Of a stretch of 64,000 nucleotides of DNA, positions 1-12,750 are shown one piece after another (position 1 is the first letter of the stretch; each line of letters begins with the position of its first letter). Below the pieces are notes generated by a model. It was not told the origin of the DNA, searched no databases, and saw nothing but the letters and a program-made list of their open reading frames with translations. This stretch comes from an uncultured Myxococcales bacterium. GTDB taxonomy: Bacteria > UBA10199 > 2-02-FULL-44-16 > JAAZCA01. Both the position numbers and the translations under genes were made by a program. The DNA lies in NCBI GenBank assembly GCA_964480565.1, contig CAYZSU010000003.1, positions 1,415 through 65,414 of the forward strand, in the 5' to 3' direction.

Positions 1-55
1 TTTTTCATTTGTTTTTCCAATTATTATCAGGTCGGCAAGTAATTAATGGGCGCAT

Positions 56-84
56 AAAAAAAGGGGCTTTAAAAGCCCCTTTTC
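56..84. terminator. Rho-independent terminator hairpin (GGGGC/GCCCC stem flanked by A-run and T-run), downstream of minus-strand gene 124..1395; potentially bidirectional
   Basis: aaaaaaaGGGGCtttaaaaGCCCCtttt read directly in the sequence. Confidence 0.6.
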
Positions 85-123
85 TACTAAAGTAATGCAA
101 TGCTATTCTTCATTTTCGTCCGT

Positions 124-1395
124 TTATTCACCATTTTCGTCAAATACTTCATAGCATGAAATCCAGTCATGGCCTAATGTGTAGTGCGAGCAGGCACTTT
201 CGATTGTTTCTGCATTAATAGCATTTAAATCATAGATACCCACGCTGACATCATCCGAACAGTCCCATATTTCTGTGGATTCATATGATATTGTTAGCGG
301 TGTTGTTTCAATATCAGGCAATGTGGCGCTGCTTACTACAGAATAATACTCACTGTCTTCAGCAGAGCTTAGCATGGCTAAATCATCGCCAGTCCATGCA
401 TCCGTGCCTGTACCTGTGCTTGGTTCGCGGTATTCTTGCCCTTGCCATGTACCAGAAGCAATATAGCTGATGGCACCATCGCCCATGGCGAGATCTGTCA
501 TACTATCCGTATCATCGCCCAGCAATTCACCAGCAGAATAGCATTGCTCACCATGGGTATCAGAACCCTGTAAGCCATAGCGATATCCACTAACTGCAAA
601 TTCACCTGGTGTTTGCGTTAATGTACTTTCCTGCCAACTATCACTGCCATCACCCATTTCGCCTGAATCTTTGACTACAATAGCACGTTCTGTATATTGG
701 CCAGATGAGTTTAATGTACCGGTGACATCTACGGAATGCATGGATTGATCGTGACGACCAATAGCTGTCATGGTCACGGATGTGCTGTCAAATTCCTGTT
801 TCACATATTCGCTTTGAGTCATGTTATCGCCAGTGCCATTACACATAAACATTTCAAAAAATGTAATGGAACCATTGGCATCCTTTTGCAGCTTCATTTT
901 GATTCGACTGGGTGTATTGCCATCATCATTGCTTAGGTTGAGATTAAAAATATGATATTCGCCATCGTAAATATCAATTTCATCGCCATTGCCATCCGTA
1001 ATGCCGGTAAATGCAGCGCCGTCATTCATTGTGCTAACATAGCACATGATTTGATCCGCTTGTGCAGCAGCGCTAATACTTTCGCGCAGCATATTGAGCG
1101 TTTCACATGCGCCACGGCTGGATGTGCCAGCTGTAAAATCATTGGATGTGGATGTTTTTAAATTGGATCCTGTTGTCGCTGCTTTGCTAACATTGGCAAG
1201 AGCATCCGATAAACTGCTGGAACTGCTATCTGCCATGGCGCTTGTGGCTTTTGGTAGGTCTGCGATAGTGGACAGTGTTGGCGCCTCGGTTGAATCAGTA
1301 GATCCCGAGGATGTGCTGGTGGAGCTAGAGCTGCCACAGGCAATGATGCTGGTTAGTGCAATGGTTAGCATGCTTGCTAACAAAAACTGTTTCAT
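124..1395 (-). CDS. Hypothetical secreted Ser/Thr/Gly/Asp-rich lipoprotein (423 aa)
   Basis: N-terminal signal peptide with lipobox-like IIAC followed by a GSSSSTSTSSGS linker; no recognisable catalytic motif. Confidence 0.5.
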   Translation of the reverse strand: MKQFLLASMLTIALTSIIACGSSSSTSTSSGSTDSTEAPTLSTIADLPKATSAMADSSSSSLSDALANVSKAATTGSNLKTSTSNDFTAGTSSRGACETLNMLRESISAAAQADQIMCYVSTMNDGAAFTGITDGNGDEIDIYDGEYHIFNLNLSNDDGNTPSRIKMKLQKDANGSITFFEMFMCNGTGDNMTQSEYVKQEFDSTSVTMTAIGRHDQSMHSVDVTGTLNSSGQYTERAIVVKDSGEMGDGSDSWQESTLTQTPGEFAVSGYRYGLQGSDTHGEQCYSAGELLGDDTDSMTDLAMGDGAISYIASGTWQGQEYREPSTGTGTDAWTGDDLAMLSSAEDSEYYSVVSSATLPDIETTPLTISYESTEIWDCSDDVSVGIYDLNAINAETIESACSHYTLGHDWISCYEVFDENGE

Positions 1396-1497
1396 AATTC
1401 CTCCTTAGATTATTTTTTATCAATTGAAAGTAAGGGGTATTATAGTAATTTTTTTTGAATCTGCAATGGTTTATTAAGATAATTTAAAAGGAGGATT

Positions 1498-1556
1498 GTT
1501 GAAATTGCTGAGCCGAGAATCGGAATTGAACCGACGACCTGCTGATTACGAATCAG
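1498..1556. repeat. attL: 59-bp direct repeat identical to 9349..9407 (duplicated 3' part of tRNA-Thr plus 13 bp downstream)
   Basis: Exact match gttgaaattgctgagccgagaatcggaattgaaccgacgacctgctgattacgaatcag at both sites; divergence starts at the next base (g versus c). Confidence 0.85.
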
Positions 1557-1698
1557 GCGGTCTTATTTATATCGACATAGATTGAGATATATTATCCTTT
1601 ACATATCAACATGTTAAACGTTATTAACTGTTATCGTGATAGCTGGTAAACGATGTTTCGTGCTTGCTATGTGATTGCTGTAAATGATTGGGAGGGGT

Positions 1699-2901
1699 AT
1701 GAAGATTACCAAGAGTAAGGTTGTGGCATTGAAACCATCGGAAAAAGACAAGCTTTATTGGGATGATTCATTGGCAGGCTTTGGGATAAAGGTGACGCCA
1801 AAAGGAAAGAAATCCTATGTGTATCAATACCGATTGGGCGGCCGGCGAGGCCGGACAAAACGAGTGTCATTGGGTGTTCATGGTGCGGTTACTACAGAGC
1901 AAGCACGGCGTGATGCAGTAAAAATTTCTGGCCAAGTTGCGCAAGGGATTGATGTTGCAGAGGATAAACGCAAAAAGAATACTTCACTAAGGCTCTCAGA
2001 AGTGATGGATGTCTTTTTTAGGGAGCATGTTAATATAAAGCTCAAACTCTCAACGCAGCGCGATTATGAGGGGCTTGTTAGGCTTCATATCAAACCAGCT
2101 TTGGGTAATATCAAGATTGATGAGCTCAACCGAAGTGATATTGCTAGATTCCATAATCGAATGAAGAATACACCGTATTATGCCAATCGTGCCTTGGCTC
2201 TGCTCAGTAAGTTGATGTCATGGTCGGAAGGGCACGGTTATCGATCAATCGGATCTAATCCCTGTATTGGCCTTGAAAAATATCATGAGAAGAAGCGTGA
2301 AAGATTTCTAAACGATGCAGAACTTCATAAATTGGGAATGGCAATTACAAAACTTGAAGAGAGTGGGAATATTTCTGAATACGCTGCGGCAGCTATCCAC
2401 ATGCTCCTTTTCACCGGCTGTCGTCTTCAGGAGATTTTAAAACTCAAATGGGATGAGGTGGATGATGCGAGAGGGTTGCTCCGATTAACCGACACAAAAA
2501 CGGGTCAACGCAATGTAATTATAAATGCTTCTGCGCTAGAAGTGCTTCAAGGAGTAAAGCGAATTGAAGGAAATCCATACGTGTTTTGTGGCCATAAGCC
2601 AGGTCAGCCGATCATCGAATTACGCAAATCTTGGAAACGTGTTTGCATGGTCGCAGAAATTGACAATGTACGCCTTCATGACTTGCGTCATACGCATGCG
2701 AGTGTCGCTATTGCAGCTGGTTACTCCCTTCCAGTTATTGGTTCTCTTCTGGGGCATACACAACCTCAAACTACTGCCCGTTATAGTCATCTCAGTGAAA
2801 GTCCAGCCCGCATTGCCTCGGAATCGGTAGGTGAGCACTTAAACCGCGTGATGAGTGGCAAGGGAACGGTGAGGAGTTTAAAGACTGTGGGTAGTAAATA
2901 G
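1699..2901 (+). CDS. int: Tyrosine-type site-specific integrase, P4-like (N-terminal arm-binding DUF4102-type domain)
   Basis: C-terminal catalytic motifs HDLRHTHAS...LLGHTQPQTTARYSHL (R-HxxR-Y); N-terminal LYWDDSLAGFGIKVTPKGKKSYVYQYR; RBS gggagggg upstream of the ATG at 1699 (ORF track begins at 1684). Confidence 0.9.
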   Translation: MKITKSKVVALKPSEKDKLYWDDSLAGFGIKVTPKGKKSYVYQYRLGGRRGRTKRVSLGVHGAVTTEQARRDAVKISGQVAQGIDVAEDKRKKNTSLRLSEVMDVFFREHVNIKLKLSTQRDYEGLVRLHIKPALGNIKIDELNRSDIARFHNRMKNTPYYANRALALLSKLMSWSEGHGYRSIGSNPCIGLEKYHEKKRERFLNDAELHKLGMAITKLEESGNISEYAAAAIHMLLFTGCRLQEILKLKWDEVDDARGLLRLTDTKTGQRNVIINASALEVLQGVKRIEGNPYVFCGHKPGQPIIELRKSWKRVCMVAEIDNVRLHDLRHTHASVAIAAGYSLPVIGSLLGHTQPQTTARYSHLSESPARIASESVGEHLNRVMSGKGTVRSLKTVGSK

Positions 2902-2916
2902 TCAAAGGAGTTAATT

Positions 2917-4023
2917 ATGTCGATGTTAGCCTTTTTCCCATGGTTGAAGATTGCCGAGGATGTTGAATGCGATGATTTTAAGTTGATTCGATATGAAAGA
3001 GGGCGGCTTCCAGGTCCAGTAGGCAGCGAAATGCAAAAGATTTGTGATCGTTTGCTACAGCCTTTTGTTGAGCGTTATTATGATTCTGATGATAATGATT
3101 GTCCAGTTGCCAATGCCACAATCTGCCTACTTAAGAACAAGGATCTATTTGATGATTATGATGAAAGTGATCGGGAGAATTTATTCGAAATAGCTGAAGT
3201 GGTCGCCTTTTGCGGCCTTGCAAAAAGAGAATACTTTCAAGGTTTTTTTGACAATTATCATAATGCGGATAGCTATCATCTTGTTATGCAGGGGTTTGAA
3301 GGTTCTGACGGTGGTTCTTGTATTATAACGCGTCGTCGTGACGGTAGCAATAAGGATCTACGTTCAAAAGATACTTACAAGGTCAGTAGGCCATTTAACG
3401 TGGGTTGCAATAACACAATAAAGCTCGACATATCCCTTATGAATGCCCTTATTAAAGCGCTAGAGGATGAAAAGTTGAGTCTGGCATGTGCCGATGCGAT
3501 TTTTAGTTTCAATAAAGCCAATACAGATAGTTCATTGATGACCGAATACCATGAAATGGTTTTTATGTTGAGTGCGATGCAGCGGCTCTTTAATTGTAAT
3601 TATAAAGAGGATAATACTGCAAAAGCATTTATGAGCTTGATGGATTCATATTCTAAACTAAAAGTTTCCAACAGTGATCGATTAAAAGGGCACCAAAAGC
3701 AAACAAGAACTATTTCAGAAGCATGGCTTCGGGATTTTTTTCAGCTGAGGGGGCATTTTGCTCATGGGAAACGGGTGAGTCAGCAGAAACACTATTGGAC
3801 GCTCAAAGAACATCTGCTATTCGCCTCATATATCATTCCGTTATTGGCCAAACAAAAGCTTTCAAATGAAGGATACTATTCATTGACCGATGATGATTTG
3901 TCCCAGCTACGTACCTTCGAAAAACTGCTGGATGAGGATGTGTTCAAAAAAATATCCAAAGAATGTGAACAACAATGTTTTGAATGGAATCGTGTGGTTG
4001 ATGAAGAAAAAGATAGGTTGTGA
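2917..4023 (+). CDS. Hypothetical protein (368 aa), translationally coupled to the integrase; island cargo
   Basis: Starts 13 nt after the int stop with RBS aaggag; no recognised domain; contains QLRGHFAHG (R-x4-H, HEPN-like spacing, speculative). Confidence 0.6.
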   Translation: MSMLAFFPWLKIAEDVECDDFKLIRYERGRLPGPVGSEMQKICDRLLQPFVERYYDSDDNDCPVANATICLLKNKDLFDDYDESDRENLFEIAEVVAFCGLAKREYFQGFFDNYHNADSYHLVMQGFEGSDGGSCIITRRRDGSNKDLRSKDTYKVSRPFNVGCNNTIKLDISLMNALIKALEDEKLSLACADAIFSFNKANTDSSLMTEYHEMVFMLSAMQRLFNCNYKEDNTAKAFMSLMDSYSKLKVSNSDRLKGHQKQTRTISEAWLRDFFQLRGHFAHGKRVSQQKHYWTLKEHLLFASYIIPLLAKQKLSNEGYYSLTDDDLSQLRTFEKLLDEDVFKKISKECEQQCFEWNRVVDEEKDRL

Positions 4024-4066
4024 TGGGCAAATATCGCAAAAGATCTTGAAGAGTTAGAGGGATAGG

Positions 4067-4735
4067 ATGAAAAAGGAAATCTGTAAAAAATTAAAATCTA
4101 GTCCAAAAAAACGTGATACATCACTTCGAGCTCAAGAGCGAGGAATCTATAACTGCATTAGAAGGGATGCTGATATTAAGGAGCTTGGTTGTGATGCATG
4201 TAGAAGTATTGCGAATAAGCTGGCTCGTGGACTAAGAGACTTTGGCAGGAAGGGATGTGTTGAAGCGTCGAAAGAGATTGTGGCTCTGAATCTGGGATAT
4301 AAAGTTAAGGTTAAAGGAAGAAGTCGGTCGATTACAGATAATGAGGTTGAAAAGTTTTATCAGTACTTTATCCAGGCCTCAGAAATTCAGACTATAGAGT
4401 CCTCTAAAAGAAAGATGCTTGAATATGCCGATGTATTAAAAGACCTGCAGAAAAGAAGAGTTAGATATAAGGACAGTAGAAAACGTGAAGCAAAAATTGA
4501 TAAACAAATGTTAAAGGGAAGCGAAAAATTTGTAATCACTGCTTTGATGAAAGAAATTGTTGATATTGTAGATTTTGAACTGAAGAAAAAGAGGTATTCA
4601 GAACGTCGATATCTTGATCATTCCTTTAAGTTGGTTGCAGTAATATTCCAGTCAATTGCGGATCCTTCCATAGCGAAGTTCAACTGGAAGAGGATTAAAT
4701 CGAGTGTCAATAAGTCGTTACCTCCGATGAAATAG
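4067..4735 (+). CDS. Hypothetical highly basic (Lys/Arg-rich) protein (222 aa); island cargo
   Basis: RBS gaggga upstream; co-directional and 43 nt downstream of orf368; composition suggests nucleic-acid binding. Confidence 0.55.
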   Translation: MKKEICKKLKSSPKKRDTSLRAQERGIYNCIRRDADIKELGCDACRSIANKLARGLRDFGRKGCVEASKEIVALNLGYKVKVKGRSRSITDNEVEKFYQYFIQASEIQTIESSKRKMLEYADVLKDLQKRRVRYKDSRKREAKIDKQMLKGSEKFVITALMKEIVDIVDFELKKKRYSERRYLDHSFKLVAVIFQSIADPSIAKFNWKRIKSSVNKSLPPMK

Positions 4736-4851
4736 TGCTTAAATTTCACTTAGGTATCACTGTCGATATTCTGCAGTGGTTCCCTTTCTCGCAATATTCT
4801 GAATGACTCTGTATTCTCCTGTGTAAATCATAACACATGGGAGGAAATGTC

Positions 4852-5064
4852 ATGAACCAAGATAAGAAGTATTTACGTACCCCAGAAGCGGCGTCCTATA
4901 TTGGATTATCTGAAAGCACTTTGATCAAGGATAGGTGGAGCGGTCATCTTCAAATTCCTCATGTTAAAGTTGGTCGTTCGGTTCTTTACGATATTGGCGA
5001 CCTTGACGCGTGGTTAAATGGGCTAAAGGTAAACACGATTGAGGTCAAACATGAAGGATCGTAA
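4852..5064 (+). CDS. alpA: AlpA-family phage transcriptional regulator / excisionase-like DNA-binding protein
   Basis: YLRTPEAASYIGLSESTLIKDRWSGHLQIPHVKVGRSVLYDIGDLDAWL matches the AlpA/Xis HTH pattern; RBS gggagg 7 nt upstream of ATG 4852. Confidence 0.85.
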   Translation: MNQDKKYLRTPEAASYIGLSESTLIKDRWSGHLQIPHVKVGRSVLYDIGDLDAWLNGLKVNTIEVKHEGS

Positions 5065-5500
5065 GTCTGTAGAAAATGAAGACTTTGGATGTCCAATACT
5101 TGATGCCTTTATGTATGTGCCGGAAGGGATATATGACGTGGCATTTGTTAGATATGACCGTCCTGTAAATGTATTTGGCCCTGATGAACGAAGAATATTT
5201 TTTCACTGGAAAATCGTGACGCCTGGTGAATATTTTGAAGTACAACTATTTCAGTCATTTAAGCACTATGAAAGATGGGGAACACAATCGAAATACTATC
5301 GATGCTGGTGCTTGGCGGCTGGGCAGCGTCCACGCCGTCGAACAAGGATGACGCCAGATGTTTTTAAAGGTAAAATCTTTAAGGCTTCAGTTGAAATCGT
5401 ACAACCAAAATATGAGGATGGACCTTTTAAAGGAAAATCTCGGCCCGAGGCGGAGTGGTATAGTGTAGTCCGAAATTTATTGGAGATTATCGCAGGATGA
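5051..5500 (+). CDS. Hypothetical protein (149 aa), overlaps the alpA stop (translational coupling)
   Basis: ATG at 5051 preceded by gagg; no recognisable motif. Confidence 0.5.
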   Translation: MKDRKSVENEDFGCPILDAFMYVPEGIYDVAFVRYDRPVNVFGPDERRIFFHWKIVTPGEYFEVQLFQSFKHYERWGTQSKYYRCWCLAAGQRPRRRTRMTPDVFKGKIFKASVEIVQPKYEDGPFKGKSRPEAEWYSVVRNLLEIIAG

Positions 5501-5740
5501 AAAATCAGCGAATAGACATTAGTATTCAGTAGCTAGAAACCAGCAGAAAGAAACAAACAACTACCAACTTAGGGTCGATAAAAGTGTTGTCAAATGATCA
5601 TCTGCTGGATGCTTTGGACAAGTAGCACCTTTGGAAGCGGCTAACCAGAAAATATGCCAACAGCTCGGCTCTAACTTAAAGATGAGTCAGAGTCGAGCGC
5701 CAAAGGGTTGTGTTAATAACAGGAAAAACAGGTAATTTTA

Positions 5741-6154
5741 ATGCGAGATAATAAAGGAAAATTTTTGTCAGGATACAGTGGAAATCCGGATGGACGGCCA
5801 TCTGGCTGCCAAAGCAGGCTCTCGAAGGAACTTCAGCATGCAGCGGAGGATATCCTTCCACTCTGGATTGATGCTGCTTGTAAAGGTGATGAGGAGAAAC
5901 AGCGGTTTTTATTGGAGAGGGGACTTCCAAAATTTAAGGCTCAATCACCTGAGGTGAATATCAACCTTGATAGCGAAAGCAATACTGAGCGCATACGGTT
6001 GCTGTTGGTCGCTGTTGCGAAAGGGGAAATCCCTTCATCCGTAGCATCTGAGATCGTATCCATGATTGCAGCGGCAGCGAAGGTGGGGGAGATCGAAAAG
6101 CTGAAAGAAGAACTTGCAGCGGTCAAACTGATCCTGTCGAAGCGAAAGAAATGA
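5741..6154 (+). CDS. DUF5681-like phage/satellite-associated protein (137 aa)
   Basis: N-terminal SGNPDGRPSG resembles the GNP-x-GRPKG signature of DUF5681 proteins found in phages and satellites; coiled-coil C-terminus. Confidence 0.5.
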   Translation: MRDNKGKFLSGYSGNPDGRPSGCQSRLSKELQHAAEDILPLWIDAACKGDEEKQRFLLERGLPKFKAQSPEVNINLDSESNTERIRLLLVAVAKGEIPSSVASEIVSMIAAAAKVGEIEKLKEELAAVKLILSKRKK

Positions 6155-6162
6155 GGTGAAGA

Positions 6163-6687
6163 ATGAATACTTTTCAGTTGAGGGAAAAATATCGATATTT
6201 GACGCCGCAGGAGCGGGCAAAACTGTTTCTGTCTCAAGCGGTTCCCTACCAGGATAATCTCTTGGCCAACACCTTATCTTCTGAGACGCTATACGAGAGC
6301 TATCTGATGAATCTTACCGAATCACGATTGGTGATCTTTGGCATGTATTGGCTAAACAAGCTTACATTTCTTGAAGGAATGAATTCGAAAATCATTATGT
6401 CAGAGGATTTTGATACTGAATTTCAGAAACGATACGGTGATTTTGGCGATCCGGCTGCCGCGCTTGCTTATGTATTGAGCGAATTCGACAAGGAACATGG
6501 GGGCTGGCTGCAAGGTATTGCCGTTATTATGGGTTGTCAGGAATGTTGGGATCGTGCCCTTGCACGTAGCAAACTTATTCAACAATATAATCTCGATCAT
6601 AATTTCCCCGATCGCGTAGATAATATTTATAAAAATGTGCTGTCATTTTGGGAACACGTAGAACATTTGGATAATATTCAAAGTTGA
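6163..6687 (+). CDS. Hypothetical protein (174 aa)
   Basis: ORF with RBS gaggtg; 8 nt after the previous gene; no recognisable motif. Confidence 0.5.
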   Translation: MNTFQLREKYRYLTPQERAKLFLSQAVPYQDNLLANTLSSETLYESYLMNLTESRLVIFGMYWLNKLTFLEGMNSKIIMSEDFDTEFQKRYGDFGDPAAALAYVLSEFDKEHGGWLQGIAVIMGCQECWDRALARSKLIQQYNLDHNFPDRVDNIYKNVLSFWEHVEHLDNIQS

Positions 6688-6893
6688 GTTATATGAGGTT
6701 AATCTATTTATGAACCTTCAGGATTTTTCCGTCTTCGAGGGAGTGGCTCACGCGATGTTGCAGGATATGATTAGATTGTGGCGCGAGTGGTTATTTTTCA
6801 TTAATAATTATGAGACGGTAAGTGTCATGGAATGAGAACAGCTGCAAATTAGAAAATGTAAAGTCAGATGATACTACAATGAGAGCATTGTTG

Positions 6894-7637
6894 TTAGAAT
6901 AATTCAATTTGAAGATATTTCCAACAATTTGGAATGCTGCACGGTAAATTGAAGTTTTTTTCGTAAACCTTTTCAAAAAACATTTTTCTTACATCCTCTT
7001 TTTTTAATTTCAGAATTTCGATTTGATCTATAGTCAATCGAATTGTAGCGGGTGGAATATAAGCTTGTTTCGGATCGAATGGCTTTGCTTCAGCTAACAA
7101 TGAATCTTCCGTGTTTTGTGTGTGAATGTCGCTAGGTCCATTGAGATCTAGATAGCACTTAGAGAGTAGATGACGAAGTGATTCTGTATGTTTTCCTTCA
7201 GCATGCAGGATTTCTGCCATTTCCCAGTGGCAAAAACTATATTTCATCCATTCGTTATTACCGGCGTAAATTGAGAGTTGTTGGTTTAATATTGGCCAAC
7301 GCCTATTTCTTTCTTTTCGGCGCTTGGCTTCCTCTTCTTTTAATAGTATTTTCCCTTCCTCTAGATTAAATACTTTCTTCAGGTTTCTCTCTGTAAAATA
7401 AATGTGAATGTATTCATTTGAACAATGAGGGCAAATCCTCTTTCGTTTTCTACCAGGATTAATGAGTGGAGTCTTGCAATGTGGGCAATCATATTCTTTA
7501 TGAACCGGTGGTAGCTTAATGAATGGTTGTTCTGGTAATTTATGCTCGGTGATTTTGTTCTTCTTCCTTTTTCTTTTAATGTAGTGATTTACACAGAGTG
7601 ATAGTGAAAGTAATATGATAAACACTGTAAACCACAT
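6894..7637 (-). CDS. Membrane-anchored zinc-ribbon protein (247 aa); second gene of a leftward two-gene module
   Basis: N-terminal TM helix MWFTVFIILLSLSLCV, basic stretch, then CPHC-x15-CPHC zinc ribbon; C-terminal domain unknown. Confidence 0.6.
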   Translation of the reverse strand: MWFTVFIILLSLSLCVNHYIKRKRKKNKITEHKLPEQPFIKLPPVHKEYDCPHCKTPLINPGRKRKRICPHCSNEYIHIYFTERNLKKVFNLEEGKILLKEEEAKRRKERNRRWPILNQQLSIYAGNNEWMKYSFCHWEMAEILHAEGKHTESLRHLLSKCYLDLNGPSDIHTQNTEDSLLAEAKPFDPKQAYIPPATIRLTIDQIEILKLKKEDVRKMFFEKVYEKNFNLPCSIPNCWKYLQIELF

Positions 7638-7686
7638 CTATAAGCCTCCAGTTCTTGGGTTTGTTTACATATTCTCTTTTAACACC

Positions 7687-8454
7687 TTACTGCAAAACAT
7701 TGTCATTCTTTTCTTCAAGGAGTTTTGTCTTTCGTTTCTTCTTGTTTGGCAGTGATATCTTGATCGTTTCCATCTCATTATTGGCGGCTTCATTGAGAAG
7801 ACGGCGGATACCGCTGACGATTTCTTCTGGTGTAATCATAATTCCAGTTGTTCGGCGAAGCTCTCGGCGTATTCGTCGAAGATTATCTTCGGATAATATC
7901 GTTTCAAGGAGGTTGCCAGCTGAAAGCACATTGCGCTTTTTCCAAAGGGCATCGAGGCCACCCTTTTTGACGTTTTTGAATCCAATTTCCTCAAATCGCT
8001 CTGCAAGTAATGCAGGGGAGTCATTGAGTATGTTCCATGTATAGATTAGTTTCGTCTGAGGGGGTTGGCCGAATGAAATGTGATACAACTGCCATTCACG
8101 TCCATTGCTGAGCATAACCCATTCACAGCCTTTGTTAATGGCATAAGAGGCAGCCTGCTTGATATGCTTAGTAGCGAGATCAACATTTACTCGTTTGAGT
8201 TCAATGAGAATGATAGGTTCAGCATTATCAAGTTGGACTGCAAAATCGCAATATTCAATTTCCCCAGGGCCTTGGACTGCGTGTTCGCGAGTGACATGCT
8301 TAAAAACATCATATCCCATAAGTGAGTGGATAATTCTTTCAACGCGTCGCCTGGTTTCGGCTTCATTTCCATCTATATGCATGAGTTCCTGGATCATCTT
8401 TTGTGACTCTCGAATTGCTTTACGTGTTTCGGCTGCCATTTTTGCACGTGCCAT
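7687..8454 (-). CDS. PD-(D/E)xK nuclease-fold protein, HsdR-N-terminal-like (255 aa)
   Basis: GEIEYCDFAV...IILIELK gives a D...(E)xK catalytic arrangement typical of restriction-endonuclease-like nucleases; Arg-rich C-terminal extension. Confidence 0.55.
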   Translation of the reverse strand: MARAKMAAETRKAIRESQKMIQELMHIDGNEAETRRRVERIIHSLMGYDVFKHVTREHAVQGPGEIEYCDFAVQLDNAEPIILIELKRVNVDLATKHIKQAASYAINKGCEWVMLSNGREWQLYHISFGQPPQTKLIYTWNILNDSPALLAERFEEIGFKNVKKGGLDALWKKRNVLSAGNLLETILSEDNLRRIRRELRRTTGIMITPEEIVSGIRRLLNEAANNEMETIKISLPNKKKRKTKLLEEKNDNVLQ

Positions 8455-8540
8455 GATTGAATCGCCCTTTCTTTTTCCTTCTGCTGGATATGGTCAATAA
8501 TACCATAGGCAGATATACCTGTGGTCTATATAAGTCAAGC

Positions 8541-8765
8541 ATGACCTATGAAGAAACTTATGCCGCTTTCTCAAAACGTTTTCGTGGAAATTTGAAGAAA
8601 GCTTTGGCGGATGCAGGTTTGACACAAAGAAAGCAGCTTCTTGCTGGTCTAGATCCTCGTTACATTGCACGAATTAAAGCAGGTCAAGGCAATCCTACCC
8701 TTCAAACCATCTGGCGACTTGCTATTGCCGCTGGCATCGACCCTGAGAAGCTGTTTAAGAAGTGA
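8541..8765 (+). CDS. XRE-family helix-turn-helix transcriptional regulator (about 74 aa; start uncertain, ORF track begins at 8457)
   Basis: C-terminal TLQTIWRLAIAAGIDPEKLF is HTH_XRE-like; divergent from the nuclease gene. Confidence 0.5.
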   Translation: MTYEETYAAFSKRFRGNLKKALADAGLTQRKQLLAGLDPRYIARIKAGQGNPTLQTIWRLAIAAGIDPEKLFKK

Positions 8766-8837
8766 TTATTTGATTCGTCTTATGTTTGAAATATAATGAT
8801 GTACAAAAAGCAGGGAACACCGTTCCATAGATCTTAA

Positions 8838-9026
8838 TCTAAGCTTATCAGTAGAGGTCGCAATGCAGGCCTACTAGAAGCAAGGTATCGTCGAAATGTG
8901 TTTCTAGCAGATTGCTTTGCATTAGCGTTTTCCAGAAAAATGGGTGCAAAACTCATCACTTCTGATTTAAAATTAATAGAGGCGATTTCTGGAGATTTCA
9001 ATTATGCAATCTGTTTATTCAGATAA
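8838..9026 (+). pseudogene. PIN-domain (VapC-like) toxin remnant: C-terminal 62 codons only, no start codon, no antitoxin
   Basis: Open frame translating ...NVFLADCFALAFSRKMGAKLITSDLKLIEAI... resembles the VapC C-terminus (AD-x-x-IAA-x-A-x-x-G-x-x-L-x-T-x-D); preceded by an in-frame stop at 8835. Confidence 0.45.
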
Positions 9027-9348
9027 AACTTGAAAAACTTAGGGCGAAGGCTGAGTTAAAACTAAAGCAAGAAAGGCTGTATTAAAAAGGACAATGCTTG
9101 CACTGTAATAAAATATATTTTTCATATCTAGCCTCCTTTGAAGTTCGTCTATAAAAAAGAATATTGAACCCAGCATGATCCGCCACACGGTCATCACCGT
9201 CCTAAATTTTCCAATCACATTTCAAAGAACTACAGGACTATTCATTTTAACATAGCCACGTATAGATTTAACCATTCGTAGAAAATTTTGATGTGCTTAC
9301 TATGTGCTTGCTAGAAAAAAATGGGGCTGCTGCAAAAGACCGTAACCT

Positions 9349-9407
9349 GTTGAAATTGCTGAGCCGAGAATCGGAATTGAACCGACGACCTGCTGATTAC
9401 GAATCAG
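9349..9407. repeat. attR: 59-bp direct repeat, overlaps the 3' 46 nt of tRNA-Thr
   Basis: Identical to 1498..1556. Confidence 0.85.
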
Positions 9408-9434
9408 CTGCTCTACCAACTGAGCTATCTCGGC
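9362..9434 (-). tRNA. tRNA-Thr (anticodon CGT), 73 nt; integration target of the island
   Basis: Cloverleaf folded by eye on the reverse complement: GCCGAGA acceptor, GCTC/GAGC D-stem, GCTGA-TTCGTAA-TCAGC anticodon arm, TTCAATT T-loop. Confidence 0.85.
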
Positions 9435-9444
9435 TAAAATAATG

Positions 9445-9528
9445 TACCGAAGGCCGGATTTGAACCGGCACAAGCTAGTGCTCGGCAGATTTTGAATCTG
9501 CTGCGTCTACCAATTCCGCCACTCCGGC
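9445..9528 (-). tRNA. tRNA-Leu (anticodon CAA), type II with long variable arm, 84 nt
   Basis: Reverse complement GCCGGAG...GCAGA-TTCAAAA-TCTGC...variable arm...CCGG-TTCAAAT-CCGG...CTTCGGT-A. Confidence 0.8.
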
Positions 9529-9533
9529 AATGT

Positions 9534-9743
9534 CTATTCTGATTTGGAGTTATTAGTCGTTTCAGCGGGAATTACAAGGCCATTTGCGATTTCACGCAAT
9601 GCAGTTACTGTTTCCCGGTTTTTGCATTTAACTAATGGGTTTGCACCTTGATGAAGTTGCTTAGTGCGTGCGCTTGCTGTATGTACAAGTGCAAAACGAT
9701 TTTCAACTCTCTCTAAACAATCTTCTACAGTAACTCTGGCCAT
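9534..9743 (-). CDS. rpoZ: DNA-directed RNA polymerase subunit omega
   Basis: [30 protein letters not shown] is the conserved RpoZ N-terminus. Confidence 0.85.
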
Positions 9744-9930
9744 ATAATTTACTCCTAAATAACGTATAAACTAAGTTGCCGATCTATAATGTCTATTCGA
9801 TGTGAAGTCAAGTGTGAAAATACGAATATGGGCTTGTTTAATAAAGTTCTACCAAAATGATAAACTGTCAAATTTATTGCAGTGATTTTATTGAGTTAAG
9901 GAATTTCCCATTGAAGTGTGGGGCGGCTAT

Positions 9931-9970
9931 CAAAATGGACAATTTGTGGGATTGTTTAAAAATGCCGGAT
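9931..9970. repeat. Copy A of a 40-bp motif AAAATGGACAATTTGTGGG-RTTG...AAAAATGCC, also at 48934..48970
   Basis: First 19 bp identical to the second copy and about 35/40 overall; lies about 90 bp upstream of the 897-aa gene. Confidence 0.6.
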
Positions 9971-10056
9971 ATTATGTATGTTTTGATAATAATTTTTTTT
10001 AATGGTATTGTTTTTGCAATGATGGATGCTATTGTCGCTTATAAATAAGGAAACCA

Positions 10057-12750
10057 ATGACTATGAATCTAAAAAAATCGATATATTGCTTATTTATTTT
10101 TGTTTTAGTTAGTTGTCTCAGTCAAACATCGTTTTCGCACCAATTTGACCTAAGTACAGTGGACGAACTCGTGGATGTTGAAAATACATCGGGTCGAATG
10201 ATTGTGGGACAGAATGATCATTTCTATATCTGCTATATTGATCGTCAAGAAAATGATTTAAAATTAGCGGAGTATGATGGGCAGGCATGGAATACGTCAA
10301 CAATTGTGGATGATCCAGCGGGTAATGCAGTTGTTGGTCGATATTGTTCGATTATTGAAGACAATTTGCAAAATTTACATATTCTTTATTTGACAGATTC
10401 CAATAGCAATACGATTCGCCACGTGTATCAGCAAGAACAGGCATGGATTGATGAGCATGTAGCGGATAATGTGCGGGCTGCGTTTTCACCGGTGGGTAGT
10501 AGCCGAATAAGCGTTGCTTTGAATGGAAATAATAAAATTGCTATGGCAGTTTATGATTCATCATTAAAAAATTTGATGTATATCGAGCAATTGGACAATG
10601 ATACTTGGGATGTACAAACTCTTGTTAGTAATGGTGATGTAGGGCGCTATGCATCAATTGCCTTTGATTTACAGGGCAATCCTATCATAATATATTCGGC
10701 GATGGAATTTGATGCGATTGCTCAGCGGAGTTTTGCACGGTTATATAAAATATGGCGAGATGGCGATCAGTGGCAGACATCAGAGCAGATATCAACTTCG
10801 GGCAGTTATAATGATTTTTTAATCGATGCGCAAGGACGAGGCCATTTGATTTATTCTACAGGGTCGGAGTTATATTATCGCCGATGGGTTGATGATCAAT
10901 GGCAAGGTGCCTATTTAATTGATCGCTCGACCTATGTGGGTATGTATTGCAATATGTATATGGATGTGGCGGGTAATTTGTTTATTGTCTATCAGGATAA
11001 ATATCGCAGCGCGCTATTTCCAGATCTCAATCAGTTAAAATTGGCATCGCTTTACTTTCAAACCACGGATTGGTTTTCAAGCGTATCAACGGAAACGATT
11101 ACTTTTTCAGGTATGGGGCAGGGATTGCAAAATCAGTATAGTCCATCCATTGGGATTACTGATGATTATCAAATGAGACTCACATGGTTAGAATCCTATG
11201 ATGCGCCAAATAATGAAACAAATCATAGGCTAAAAATTGCAGCGCTTCGCAATTGGCAATCGCGAATTGCCTTGATTACGCCAAATGCAGATGATCATGA
11301 TGCCACGGAAGAATTTGATTTTGAATGGTATTATTTTGATCCTGAAAATGAATCAACCATTCAGATTCACTATTATCAAGATTTTAATGATCAGCATGTA
11401 TTTCAAACTAATATTCATACTTCAAATCAGAGTTTGCATGAAGTCATCGATGTAGCGGATCTTGTGGCGGGATCCTATACTATTAAAGCGAGTATTACGG
11501 ATGATGCTAATCCGAGTGTAGAGTTTAATGCGGTTCACGCATTGGAGATCAATAATCGAGTACCCAACCAGCCATCACTTGTATCTCCTGAGCATGAAGC
11601 GACAGTGACAAGTGCATTGCCAGATCTAACCGCGAGTACTGTCACTGATTTGGATGGGGATGATGTGGTATATGTGTTTCAAGTATATCGCGATGATGCG
11701 GGACAGGACTTAGTGACAGAGTCTGCAGATATACAGGTTGTGCCAGGGGCGGATGATGTTGTATGGCGTGTGGATATTGCGCTAGATGATGGCAATACCT
11801 ATTATTGGCGTGTCAGGGCAGTCGATGAACACGATAATATGAGTGATTGGACGGACTATCGTTCATTTGATGTGGATATTGCGCATGCACCGACGCAACC
11901 AAAAGATATTCAAATTAATCTTGCGAATCATGCAATGCGTCCTATTATTTCCTGGGATAATAGTGTGGATATAGATGACGATGATATTCATTATAATGCA
12001 GTTATTTGTATAGATCAGCAATGTGCCACTGTTTTTATATCGGATGATGCTGTTATAGAGGACTTTTCAGGTCGATCTTCATGGCAGATAGATCAGGATT
12101 TAGATGCGGGGGATTATTATACTCGTGTGCGCGCCATTGATATTACGAATTCCAGTAGTATTTGGTCGACTACAATTGATTTTCAAATTGATGTGCCAGT
12201 TCAAGAGCCTGAAGAGCCTGAAGAGCCTGAAGAGCCTAACGCCGAACCATCAAATGATTTGCAAAATAATGATGACGATCTTGTACAAGATGAGGAGTCA
12301 ATTGATACTCCAGCAATAGATGAGCAAGATGATACCGCGCAATTGCAAGATGACACTGAAAACGATGATGCGGCGGAACAAGAAGCAACGGAGGATAACT
12401 CTGGTCAAAGTGGAGACGTGAGCGCTTCTGCCAAAGGGGGCTGTCAAATGATTGCCAATGATTATGAGCAAGATATATCATTATATATGGTCATGATTAT
12501 TTGTATGAGTATATGTGGGTATAGGCGAATCACCCTAAAATACGTTTTTCGAAGGCTTGGTCAGTCTGCTTTGCTTCAGATTCGTTCGTCATCGCGAGAG
12601 GCCCGACGGGCAATGTGGCGATCCAGCTTGGGATTGCTTCGTCACTTCGTTCCTCGCAATGACACAGTATTGGTACAACATCTCGTTTTTAGATCGAAGT
12701 TACGAAAGATGTCAGGGAGTGTTCTTATTGAATTTCCTGCCCAATATTAA
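10057..12750 (+). CDS. Large secreted repeat protein (897 aa): signal peptide, Y/W-rich beta-propeller-like repeats, FN3/Ig-like domains with YYWRVRAVD motif, acidic low-complexity region, C-terminal tail overlapping a palindromic repeat element
   Basis: Signal peptide MNLKKSIYCLFIFVLVSCLSQTSFS; repeated x-Y-x-W blocks; GNTYYWRVRAVDEHDNMSDW; EPEEPEEPEEP. Confidence 0.6.
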   Translation: MTMNLKKSIYCLFIFVLVSCLSQTSFSHQFDLSTVDELVDVENTSGRMIVGQNDHFYICYIDRQENDLKLAEYDGQAWNTSTIVDDPAGNAVVGRYCSIIEDNLQNLHILYLTDSNSNTIRHVYQQEQAWIDEHVADNVRAAFSPVGSSRISVALNGNNKIAMAVYDSSLKNLMYIEQLDNDTWDVQTLVSNGDVGRYASIAFDLQGNPIIIYSAMEFDAIAQRSFARLYKIWRDGDQWQTSEQISTSGSYNDFLIDAQGRGHLIYSTGSELYYRRWVDDQWQGAYLIDRSTYVGMYCNMYMDVAGNLFIVYQDKYRSALFPDLNQLKLASLYFQTTDWFSSVSTETITFSGMGQGLQNQYSPSIGITDDYQMRLTWLESYDAPNNETNHRLKIAALRNWQSRIALITPNADDHDATEEFDFEWYYFDPENESTIQIHYYQDFNDQHVFQTNIHTSNQSLHEVIDVADLVAGSYTIKASITDDANPSVEFNAVHALEINNRVPNQPSLVSPEHEATVTSALPDLTASTVTDLDGDDVVYVFQVYRDDAGQDLVTESADIQVVPGADDVVWRVDIALDDGNTYYWRVRAVDEHDNMSDWTDYRSFDVDIAHAPTQPKDIQINLANHAMRPIISWDNSVDIDDDDIHYNAVICIDQQCATVFISDDAVIEDFSGRSSWQIDQDLDAGDYYTRVRAIDITNSSSIWSTTIDFQIDVPVQEPEEPEEPEEPNAEPSNDLQNNDDDLVQDEESIDTPAIDEQDDTAQLQDDTENDDAAEQEATEDNSGQSGDVSASAKGGCQMIANDYEQDISLYMVMIICMSICGYRRITLKYVFRRLGQSALLQIRSSSREARRAMWRSSLGLLRHFVPRNDTVLVQHLVFRSKLRKMSGSVLIEFPAQY
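12205..12237. repeat. Tandem 9-bp repeat (gaagagcct, about 3.7 copies) encoding EPEEPEEPEEP in the 897-aa protein
   Basis: Read directly in the sequence. Confidence 0.8.
12588..12665. repeat. Palindromic REP/MITE-like element (imperfect inverted arms gtcatcgcgagagg / cctcgcaatgac); its right arm is 32/35 identical to 49166..49200 in inverted orientation
   Basis: Reverse complement of 12631-12665 is gtgtcattgcgaggaacgaagtgacgaagcaatcc versus 49166-49200 gcgtcattgcgaggagcgaagtgacgaagcaattc. Confidence 0.65.

Follow-up and report, generated by a model that had tools for sequence, protein, structure and literature searches.

Introduction

Single-protein HEPN abortive-infection effectors form a well known kind of defence. 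ApeA, which is found in restriction–modification and defence neighbourhoods (PMC3710099), cleaves tRNA anticodon loops once a pocket distant from its active site has bound a ligand, and DARNA is a single protein in which an R-x4-H HEPN ribonuclease (RNase) is combined with a non-catalytic infection-sensing domain and which brings about abortive infection via tRNA cleavage. In DUF499-centred (Hma) systems, too, HEPN RNases are on record, there as auxiliary or backup effectors (PMC12839542). In HEPN proteins, helix 3 has the R-x4-6-H motif at its end, helix 2 contains an acidic residue, typically within E-x3-[KR], an insert separates these two helices and the conserved arginine is usually followed by N, D or H (Anantharaman et al., 2013). 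Here, we analyse a 64,000-nucleotide (nt) stretch of contig CAYZSU010000003.1 from an uncultured Myxococcales bacterium, hereafter called the window, in which an island integrated at a tRNA-Thr gene carries, directly behind its integrase gene int, an open reading frame (ORF) of 368 codons, orf368, followed by a second one of 222 codons, orf222.

The island itself invites comparison with phage satellites. PICMI satellites are defined by the co-localization of int, alpA and a primase gene (DUF3987 or DUF5906), typically next to fis; a further gene, iolg or icg, overlaps or adjoins int ahead of alpA and belongs to any of 13 unrelated families, and PICMI115 cannot excise without its iolg (PMC10803314). 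For P4-like satellites, we looked for int and alpA together with the primase (alpha), psu, delta and sid genes.

The initial annotation of the window, made from its letters, had proposed that orf368 and orf222 form a two-gene anti-phage or abortive-infection cassette at the variable, int-proximal position of a P4-like satellite. In the present analysis the two genes part company. The evidence tips towards orf368 being cargo, a stand-alone HEPN abortive-infection effector, and orf222 being an unrelated, int-contiguous gene of the island backbone.

Results

The C-terminal domain of orf368 carries an invariant R-x4-H motif

Neither protein could be placed by eye, and the single-sequence scans bear this out: no Pfam, PADLOC, PHROG or NCBIfam model was reached by orf368 or orf222. 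Structure prediction was informative for one of the two. The AlphaFold2 (AF2) model of orf368, built from a 49-sequence alignment, has a predicted local distance difference test score (pLDDT) of 92.7 and a predicted template-modelling score of 0.92 and shows two domains (Table 1), the second with HEPN-like helices, whereas the single-sequence AF2 model of orf222, all-helical with a pLDDT of 44, was too unreliable for a fold search. The N-terminal domain of orf368 carries a series of near-invariant residues, namely FFPW (6–9), R104, Y114, N116, RRRDG (139–143) and P159 (178–227 homologues), and matched neither a fold nor a family in Pfam and Foldseek searches; it is presumed to be a sensor or a regulatory or autoinhibitory module.

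The proposed helices of the C-terminal domain in this model are H1 (185–201), H2 (210–224), H3 (266–282) and H4 (296–317), with an insert (225–265) of 40 residues separating H2 from H3. E213 opens H2; the residue four places further on is neither K nor R. H3 has R278 in its last turn, and H283 is the first residue of the loop that follows. In a set of 178 homologues, selected independently of the R-x4-H motif, W270, R278 and H283 are each conserved in 178/178, D204 and H299 each in 177/178, E213 in 175/178 and N202 in 173/178; R278 and H283 are also invariant among the 49 close homologues. The family thereby has the R-x4-6-H motif expected of HEPN proteins and, on the predicted model, has it at the end of helix 3. 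At position 279, immediately after R278, 129 of the 178 homologues have G, as does the window protein, 33 have N, nine have H and four have S; the residue that follows, at position 280, is a polar one (D, N, E or S) in the family.

The motif had first been noticed in the segment QLRGHFAHG (residues 276–284) and taken as compatible with a HEPN RNase, with the caution that it was weak evidence on its own. The caution was apt, as 0.45 occurrences of R-x4-H are expected by chance in a protein of this composition; a single occurrence is not above chance, and the motif is meaningful because it is conserved across the family. The HEPN assignment itself has gained from the conservation of the motif, from its position in the model and from a series of weak profile matches that cover it. 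When the 49 members were scanned singly, four matched HEPN_Apea (best E = 0.0027), two HEPN_RiboL-PSP and one Csx1_HEPN, the first two being the only Pfam families matched by more than one member; five of these seven matches were located, and all five span R-x4-H. An hhalign comparison of the family alignment with two neighbouring HEPN-T proteins returned a probability of 0.1, from a profile too small to count against HEPN. Judging from the predicted structure together with the conserved residues, we consider it probable that the C-terminal domain of orf368 has a HEPN-type fold; RNase activity, an anti-phage role and a sensor role of the N-terminal domain are predicted.

orf368 belongs to a large and patchily distributed family

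A word-indexed search returned 49 homologues of orf368, all of them unnamed and without Pfam domains. An exhaustive profile search extended the family to 1,676 representatives of 50%-identity clusters at E <= 1e-3, with 690 at E <= 1e-30. No model for the family was found in Pfam, NCBIfam, PADLOC or PHROG, and a PADLOC scan of the 49 members gave only scattered single hits and no ApeA. A degenerate DNA pattern, built by hand from the conserved block W270...R-G-x-x-A-H-G...W294...H299, detected 74 loci in species-representative genomes (74/74 being true members by hmmsearch), at least 120 loci in metagenomes and only two in 2.9 million viral contigs.

The distribution of the family is patchy and extends over more than ten phyla, with hosts among the Nitrospirota, Gamma- and Betaproteobacteria, Myxococcota, Gemmatimonadota, Planctomycetota, Acidobacteriota, Actinomycetota, Cyanobacteria and others. 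One homologue, WP_011239922.1, is encoded on plasmid pMOL28 of Cupriavidus metallidurans CH34 (NC_007972.2; locus L093, 5221–8125), where an integrase-domain gene precedes it on the same strand at a distance of 613 nt, and is labelled 'hypothetical protein' in RefSeq; its host is culturable and well studied.

Homologues of orf368 are found within Hma operons and beside varied defence genes

The genomic context of orf368 homologues was surveyed at 189 non-redundant loci, and the Hma system proved to be the only recurrent neighbour. HmaB, a DUF1156 methylase, is encoded directly downstream in 19 of the 156 loci with an assessable downstream gene (~12%), typically with a 4-nt overlap; an HmaA-like helicase is encoded directly upstream in eight loci, and helicase and HmaB flank the homologue together in seven (L062, L172, L017, L074, L123, L127 and L002), a further 12 having HmaB only. 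The Hma-linked members form one subclade, ~52% identical to each other, and some Hma/BREX-related operons seem to have it as a regular fourth gene. The window protein is 27–32% identical to this subclade and sits in a different, solitary one.

Outside the Hma subclade no conserved neighbour was found among the surveyed loci. Here, the neighbours vary from locus to locus and are often defence or mobility genes: AbiEii, SIR2, a NACHT-like ATPase, HEPN–MNT pairs, REase–ARP, NUDIX with SRA–HNH, PDC-S34, PDC-M54A, DrmMI, AbiEi and LmuA, as well as integrases and transposases. The HEPN–MNT pairs, which lie beside two homologues, are separate modules. At locus L088 (664–7081) the homologue P0005, which is 40% identical to orf368 and among its closest relatives, ends 7 nt before the gene for a giant helicase (>1,761 residues; DEAD, Helicase_C and MZB domains) whose architecture recalls that of Druantia DruE. 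Six loci (L034, L053, L070, L083, L124 and L129) share a related protein of 210–620 residues (450–620 in five of them), encoded on the opposite strand 47–135 nt from the orf368 homologue.

A sibling island separates orf368 from orf222

The closest homologue of the window integrase, P0193, is 69% identical to it and is encoded on an 11.3-kb contig, L214, which (1–11257) ends in the same tRNA-Thr repeat as the window island. Other related integrases include P0194 and P0195 (65–69% identical). Beyond int (69%), the two islands correspond in alpA (70%), orf153 (67%), the DUF5681 gene (62%), orf174 (46%) and the HTH_3 gene (81%), the figures being identities between the encoded proteins. They also correspond in orf222: its homologue in L214 (1396–2043; 215 residues) is 38% identical over 212 residues (E = 1e-53), and its ATG follows the int stop codon after 1 nt (TGA-T-ATG). 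orf368 is absent from L214. Because an int-contiguous homologue of orf222 exists in L214 without orf368, we take orf222 as a backbone gene and orf368 as an insertion between int and orf222. The shared backbone would thus comprise int, orf222, alpA, orf153, DUF5681, orf174 and HTH_3, and at least three slots are variable.

This comparison bears on several points of the initial annotation. The two-gene cassette with orf222 as the partner of orf368 does not hold up, given the arrangement in L214 and the lack of co-occurrence (0/211 loci). The proposal that the int-proximal position is a variable slot agrees with the comparison of the window with L214, two islands in all, in which that position behaves as a cargo slot. 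The outcome that was to tell against a defence cassette, namely a role of the genes as integrase accessories, appears to apply to the orf222 half, which is int-contiguous in the island backbone, and very probably does not apply to orf368.

The cargo of the sibling is of interest in its own right. Downstream of its HTH_3 gene, at 5173–8956, L214 carries ThsA_Macro and ThsB_TIR genes, a Thoeris-type pair, together with a KAP_NTPase gene; at this position the window island has only ~580 nt of non-coding DNA. Because L214 holds Thoeris in another slot, the island family can be said to carry defence cargo.

orf222 is a basic protein

As had been noted, orf222 is rich in lysine and arginine, which make up 25% of its residues; its isoelectric point (pI) is 10.0, against 5.4 for orf368. 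No relative of orf222 was found at the other loci that carry orf368 homologues (0/211), nor in IMG/VR, phage and plasmid collections or the PDB. The word-indexed search, which returned the query only, had suggested that it was an ORFan, and the homologue in L214 overturned this. As that search missed a 38%-identical homologue in the same data source (Logan), ORFan calls need a synteny check. By comparison of the two islands, orf222 appears to be a conserved, basic, helical gene product of the island backbone, normally encoded directly after int. From its position and by analogy with the int-overlapping or int-contiguous genes of PICMI satellites, the most plausible role of orf222 would be in recombination or regulation, alongside Int and AlpA.

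Gene layout and the island at tRNA-Thr(CGT)

The ORFs, the ribosome-binding site of orf368, the 43-nt spacing between orf368 and orf222 and the QLRGHFAHG segment are all present as annotated (Table 1), but the spacer between int and orf368, given as 13 nt, measures 15 nt (2902–2916). The start of orf368 called by JGI sits two codons downstream (P0001; 366 residues); the start at 2917 is favoured because the resulting N-terminus, MSMLAFFPW, is conserved in the family. The ATG of orf222 is preceded by GAGGGA. No terminator-like site was found between int, orf368 and orf222 in a promoter and terminator scan that ran at background level, and co-transcription of the three genes is plausible because such an intervening site is absent; orf368 may also be translationally coupled to int. 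No candidate RNA antitoxin was found in the cassette, in which there was neither an Rfam family nor a tandem array.

Table 1. Features of the window around orf368
Feature	Position	Strand	Remarks
Left 60-nt direct repeat	1497..1556	.	Identical to 9348–9407; contains the 3' part of tRNA-Thr, displaced, and the next 13 nt downstream
int	1684..2901	+	Tyrosine integrase of P4-type architecture (Arm-DNA-bind_3, SAM-like and catalytic domains); PF00589 1.8e-21, PF13356 1.2e-16, PF14659 1e-10; stop codon TAG at 2899–2901; from the ORF list and the raw sequence
Ribosome-binding site of orf368	2905..2910	+	AAGGAG, within the int–orf368 spacer, 6 nt 5' of the ATG; read from the sequence
orf368	2917..4023	+	368 residues
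orf368, N-terminal alpha/beta domain	2917..3411	+	Residues 1–165; AF2 model
orf368, C-terminal helical HEPN-like domain	3430..4020	+	Residues 172–367; AF2 model
Codons R278-G-H-F-A-H283	3748..3765	+	Invariant R-x4-H, predicted RNase active site; R278 at 3748–3750, H283 at 3763–3765
orf222	4067..4735	+	222 residues
AlpA-type HTH_17 gene	4837..5064	+	PF12728 2.2e-08; downstream end of the int-proximal interval
Right 60-nt direct repeat	9348..9407	.	Intact tRNA-Thr(CGT) at 9361–9434, minus strand, is overlapped in its 3' part

Both genes lie within a 7.85-kb integrated island whose ends are 60-nt direct repeats derived from tRNA-Thr(CGT). At the left end, Rfam detects a degenerate tRNA remnant (1511–1576, minus strand, 29.8 bits). 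At the right end, a tRNA-Leu(CAA) at 9444–9528 lies 10 nt from the tRNA-Thr of the attachment site, which places the insertion at the end of a small cluster of tRNA genes. The order of genes is int, orf368, orf222, the gene for an AlpA-type HTH_17 protein, which is likely an excisionase or regulator, orf153, DUF5681 and orf174, followed by two minus-strand genes, encoding a zinc-ribbon protein and an HSDR_N_2 nuclease-like protein, and a C-protein-like HTH_3 gene.

The two minus-strand genes occupy a second cargo slot (6894–8765). They comprise orf247, with zinc-ribbon motifs, and the gene for the 255-residue HSDR_N_2 protein, which is PD-(D/E)XK-like (phrog_17239, 6e-39), and they are divergent from the HTH_3 gene (PADLOC Control_protein, 1.6e-06). 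This slot may hold another defence or restriction-like module; the gene at the same position in L214 is unrelated to those of the window.

Among the island proteins, no primase, psu, sid, delta or capsid-size family was detected with Pfam, PHROGs and NCBIfam, and the window and L214 islands have neither a primase nor any P4 or PICI hallmark gene. The island DNA has no near match in phage records, IMG/VR holds no relatives of the island Int or DUF5681 proteins and there were no phage matches for orf153 and orf174. The DUF5681 protein (5741–6154) is ~30% identical to the product of the first gene of Skatevirus phages (e.g. VSt472 gp01), a gene that sits just upstream of that of the large terminase. 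This resemblance hints that DUF5681 could be a small-terminase-like packaging gene and the lifestyle of the island satellite-like. Together with L214, the island may represent an undescribed family of satellite-like or 'hitcher' elements.

Discussion

The initial idea that orf368 is a candidate anti-phage or abortive-infection effector has stood the comparison, with an invariant motif, the topology of the model and defence-rich contexts in its favour. In the mechanism that we propose, orf368 would have been inserted as cargo at the junction of int and the gene that normally follows it; the int transcript would provide for its expression, and the protein would remain inactive until infection. 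R278-x4-H283 of the C-terminal domain, together with E213 and H299, is predicted to form a metal-independent endoribonuclease site, which would probably be completed by dimerization as in other HEPN enzymes. On infection, the protein would cleave cellular or phage RNA and phage production would stop; the precedent for its target, from ApeA and DARNA, is the anticodon loop of tRNA. The sister subclade embedded in Hma operons (DUF499/DUF1156, 'BREX-related') would presumably serve them as an auxiliary RNase effector.

Several observations weigh against this proposal. All HEPN matches lie below the curated thresholds, the best Pfam score being 18.6 bits against a cutoff of 24.4, and the conserved arginine is followed by glycine in 72% of members instead of the usual N, D or H. 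Foldseek searches of the orf368 model against the PDB and BFVD gave nothing significant, the family profile had no match among PDB sequences at E <= 10 and PADLOC had none for orf368. The defence-rich neighbourhoods are raw tallies without a background control. Since immunity or antitoxin genes are not present next to most of the homologues, self-control of a toxic RNase has to be assumed. The apparent division into cargo (orf368) and backbone (orf222) is drawn from one sibling island, and the suggested role of orf222 from its position and from analogy.

How these points are to be weighed depends on the alternatives. The foremost of them, although unlikely, is that the C-terminal domain resembles HEPN in shape only and that its conserved residues (R, H, D and E) are there for the binding of a ligand or for other chemistry, in which case orf368 would be a non-RNase sensor, regulator or enzyme. 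The sub-threshold similarities and the frequent glycine after R278 would suit such a protein, as would the comparison with the two HEPN-T neighbours and the invariance of N202, D204, W270 and H299, which fall outside the canonical HEPN site. What speaks for HEPN instead is that three independent weak signals converge on it, all centred on the invariant motif, and that the motif occupies the canonical topological position. If the domain is a true HEPN-type RNase, it might still serve a purpose other than anti-phage defence, as an addiction or stabilization toxin of mobile elements or as an enzyme of RNA processing or stress. This we also think unlikely. The catalytic-motif evidence is the same for both roles, homologues often reside on mobile DNA (on pMOL28 and in the vicinity of integrases and transposases) and orf368 is constitutively placed behind int; yet a conserved antitoxin partner is absent, members are embedded in Hma operons and lie beside many different defence genes and the cargo slots of the sibling island hold Thoeris.

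Two further alternatives concern the neighbours of orf368. A single two-component module with orf222, either an effector with a nucleic acid-binding partner or a HEPN toxin with its cognate antitoxin, would account for the adjacency of the two genes on one strand, with a short spacer free of terminator-like sites, and for the opposite charges of their products (pI 5.4 and 10.0). HEPN toxins are, moreover, often paired with protein antitoxins. It is nevertheless improbable: none of the 211 orf368-homologue loci has a relative of orf222, no neighbour is conserved outside the Hma subclade, the only known homologue of orf222 lies directly behind int in an island that lacks orf368 and the order and sizes of the genes are atypical of a type II toxin–antitoxin pair. 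Least probable by far is that orf368 is itself an integrase accessory or recombination-directionality factor like the iolg of PICMI satellites, in which the gene in the equivalent position is essential for excision (PMC10803314). The closeness of orf368 to int, with its own ribosome-binding site, and the integrase-domain gene upstream of the pMOL28 homologue would fit such a role, but ~95% of homologues have no detected integrase in their locus DNA and the window member is the only one contiguous with int. Many homologues lie inside Hma operons, and the sibling island excises or integrates without orf368, its orf222 homologue holding that position. A stand-alone HEPN effector carried as cargo thus remains the reading that we favour.

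New here are the orf368 family, which is large and has no annotation, the N-terminal domain of its members and the finding that it is used in two ways, as free cargo and as a gene embedded in Hma operons. A wider reading, possible and put forward tentatively, joins the two halves of the locus: orf368 would represent a never-annotated, widespread single-gene HEPN immune family with a new N-terminal sensor, used as free cargo and as the fourth gene of Hma, while the island would belong to an undescribed minimal family with the composition int–icg–alpA–TerS-like, residing at tRNA-Thr and shuttling defence cargo such as Thoeris, with orf222 as a new recombination accessory factor. Should orf368 be an active HEPN RNase, a large and broad family missed by Pfam, NCBIfam and PADLOC v2 would be added to the defence catalogue, and the N-terminal domain would provide a new module for the sensing of infection, to be set beside those of ApeA and DARNA. 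The fixed position between hmaA and hmaB gives access to the question of how backup RNase effectors are recruited by Hma/BREX-related systems. From the comparison of the window with L214 emerges a small family of islands in which backbone and cargo slots can be told apart, and orf222 is a testable candidate for the poorly understood function of the 'integrase-contiguous gene' of PICMI satellites.

Comparison with known systems

At the level of the island, the P4-like assignment of the initial annotation is not borne out, as primase, psu, sid and delta were not detected and of the P4-like gene set only int and the HTH_17/AlpA gene were. The likeness to PICMI satellites is closer. In L214 the orf222 homologue directly follows int, with a 1-nt spacer, and precedes alpA. 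The window island differs, however, in lacking the mandatory primase, in residing at tRNA-Thr rather than next to fis and in that orf368 separates its orf222 from int. Although int, alpA and an int-contiguous gene are present, membership of the PICMI group was rejected on account of the absent primase and the tRNA-Thr site.

For orf368, the HEPN–MNT type II/VII toxin–antitoxin systems were considered and set aside, as the island has no NTP_transf_2 gene (Pfam). The Hma systems are closer, since the genes of one subclade of the orf368 family are flanked by those of the HmaA helicase and the HmaB (DUF1156) methylase and often overlap them by 4 nt. The window island, in contrast, has no Hma genes (Pfam and PADLOC), and its orf368 belongs to another subclade; the HEPN domain described as fused to DUF499 is of the Abi2/Swt1 family and not of the orf368 family. 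As a component of an Hma operon (HmaA, HmaB and the HmaC DUF499 ATPase), the window gene was therefore rejected, the feature being found for the sister subclade only.

The layout of orf368, a proposed HEPN defence encoded by a single gene, is shared with DARNA/PD-T7-3, AbiD/F, PD-T4-2 and HepS, although no sequence similarity was detected between orf368 and single-gene HEPN defences of the DARNA type. In DARNA, the HEPN domain is N-terminal and is followed by a Pds5-like helical C-terminal domain, whereas orf368 has the reverse order and an alpha/beta second domain. The closest likeness in architecture is to ApeA, in which, as proposed here for orf368, an N-terminal domain that is not catalytic and an R-x4-H HEPN domain at the C-terminus share one polypeptide; HEPN_Apea is also the Pfam family most often weakly matched by relatives of orf368, with the motif covered. 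The two differ in their N-terminal domains: ApeA-NTD1 has ~300 residues and is mostly beta, while that of orf368 has ~165 residues, is alpha/beta and has motifs of its own (FFPW and RRRDG). orf368 was not assigned to ApeA itself, there being no Pfam or PADLOC match to it, no relative scoring above 18.6 bits and an N-terminal domain unlike ApeA_NTD1. By analogy, the ligand-triggered tRNA cleavage of ApeA nevertheless provides a workable model of how orf368 might act.

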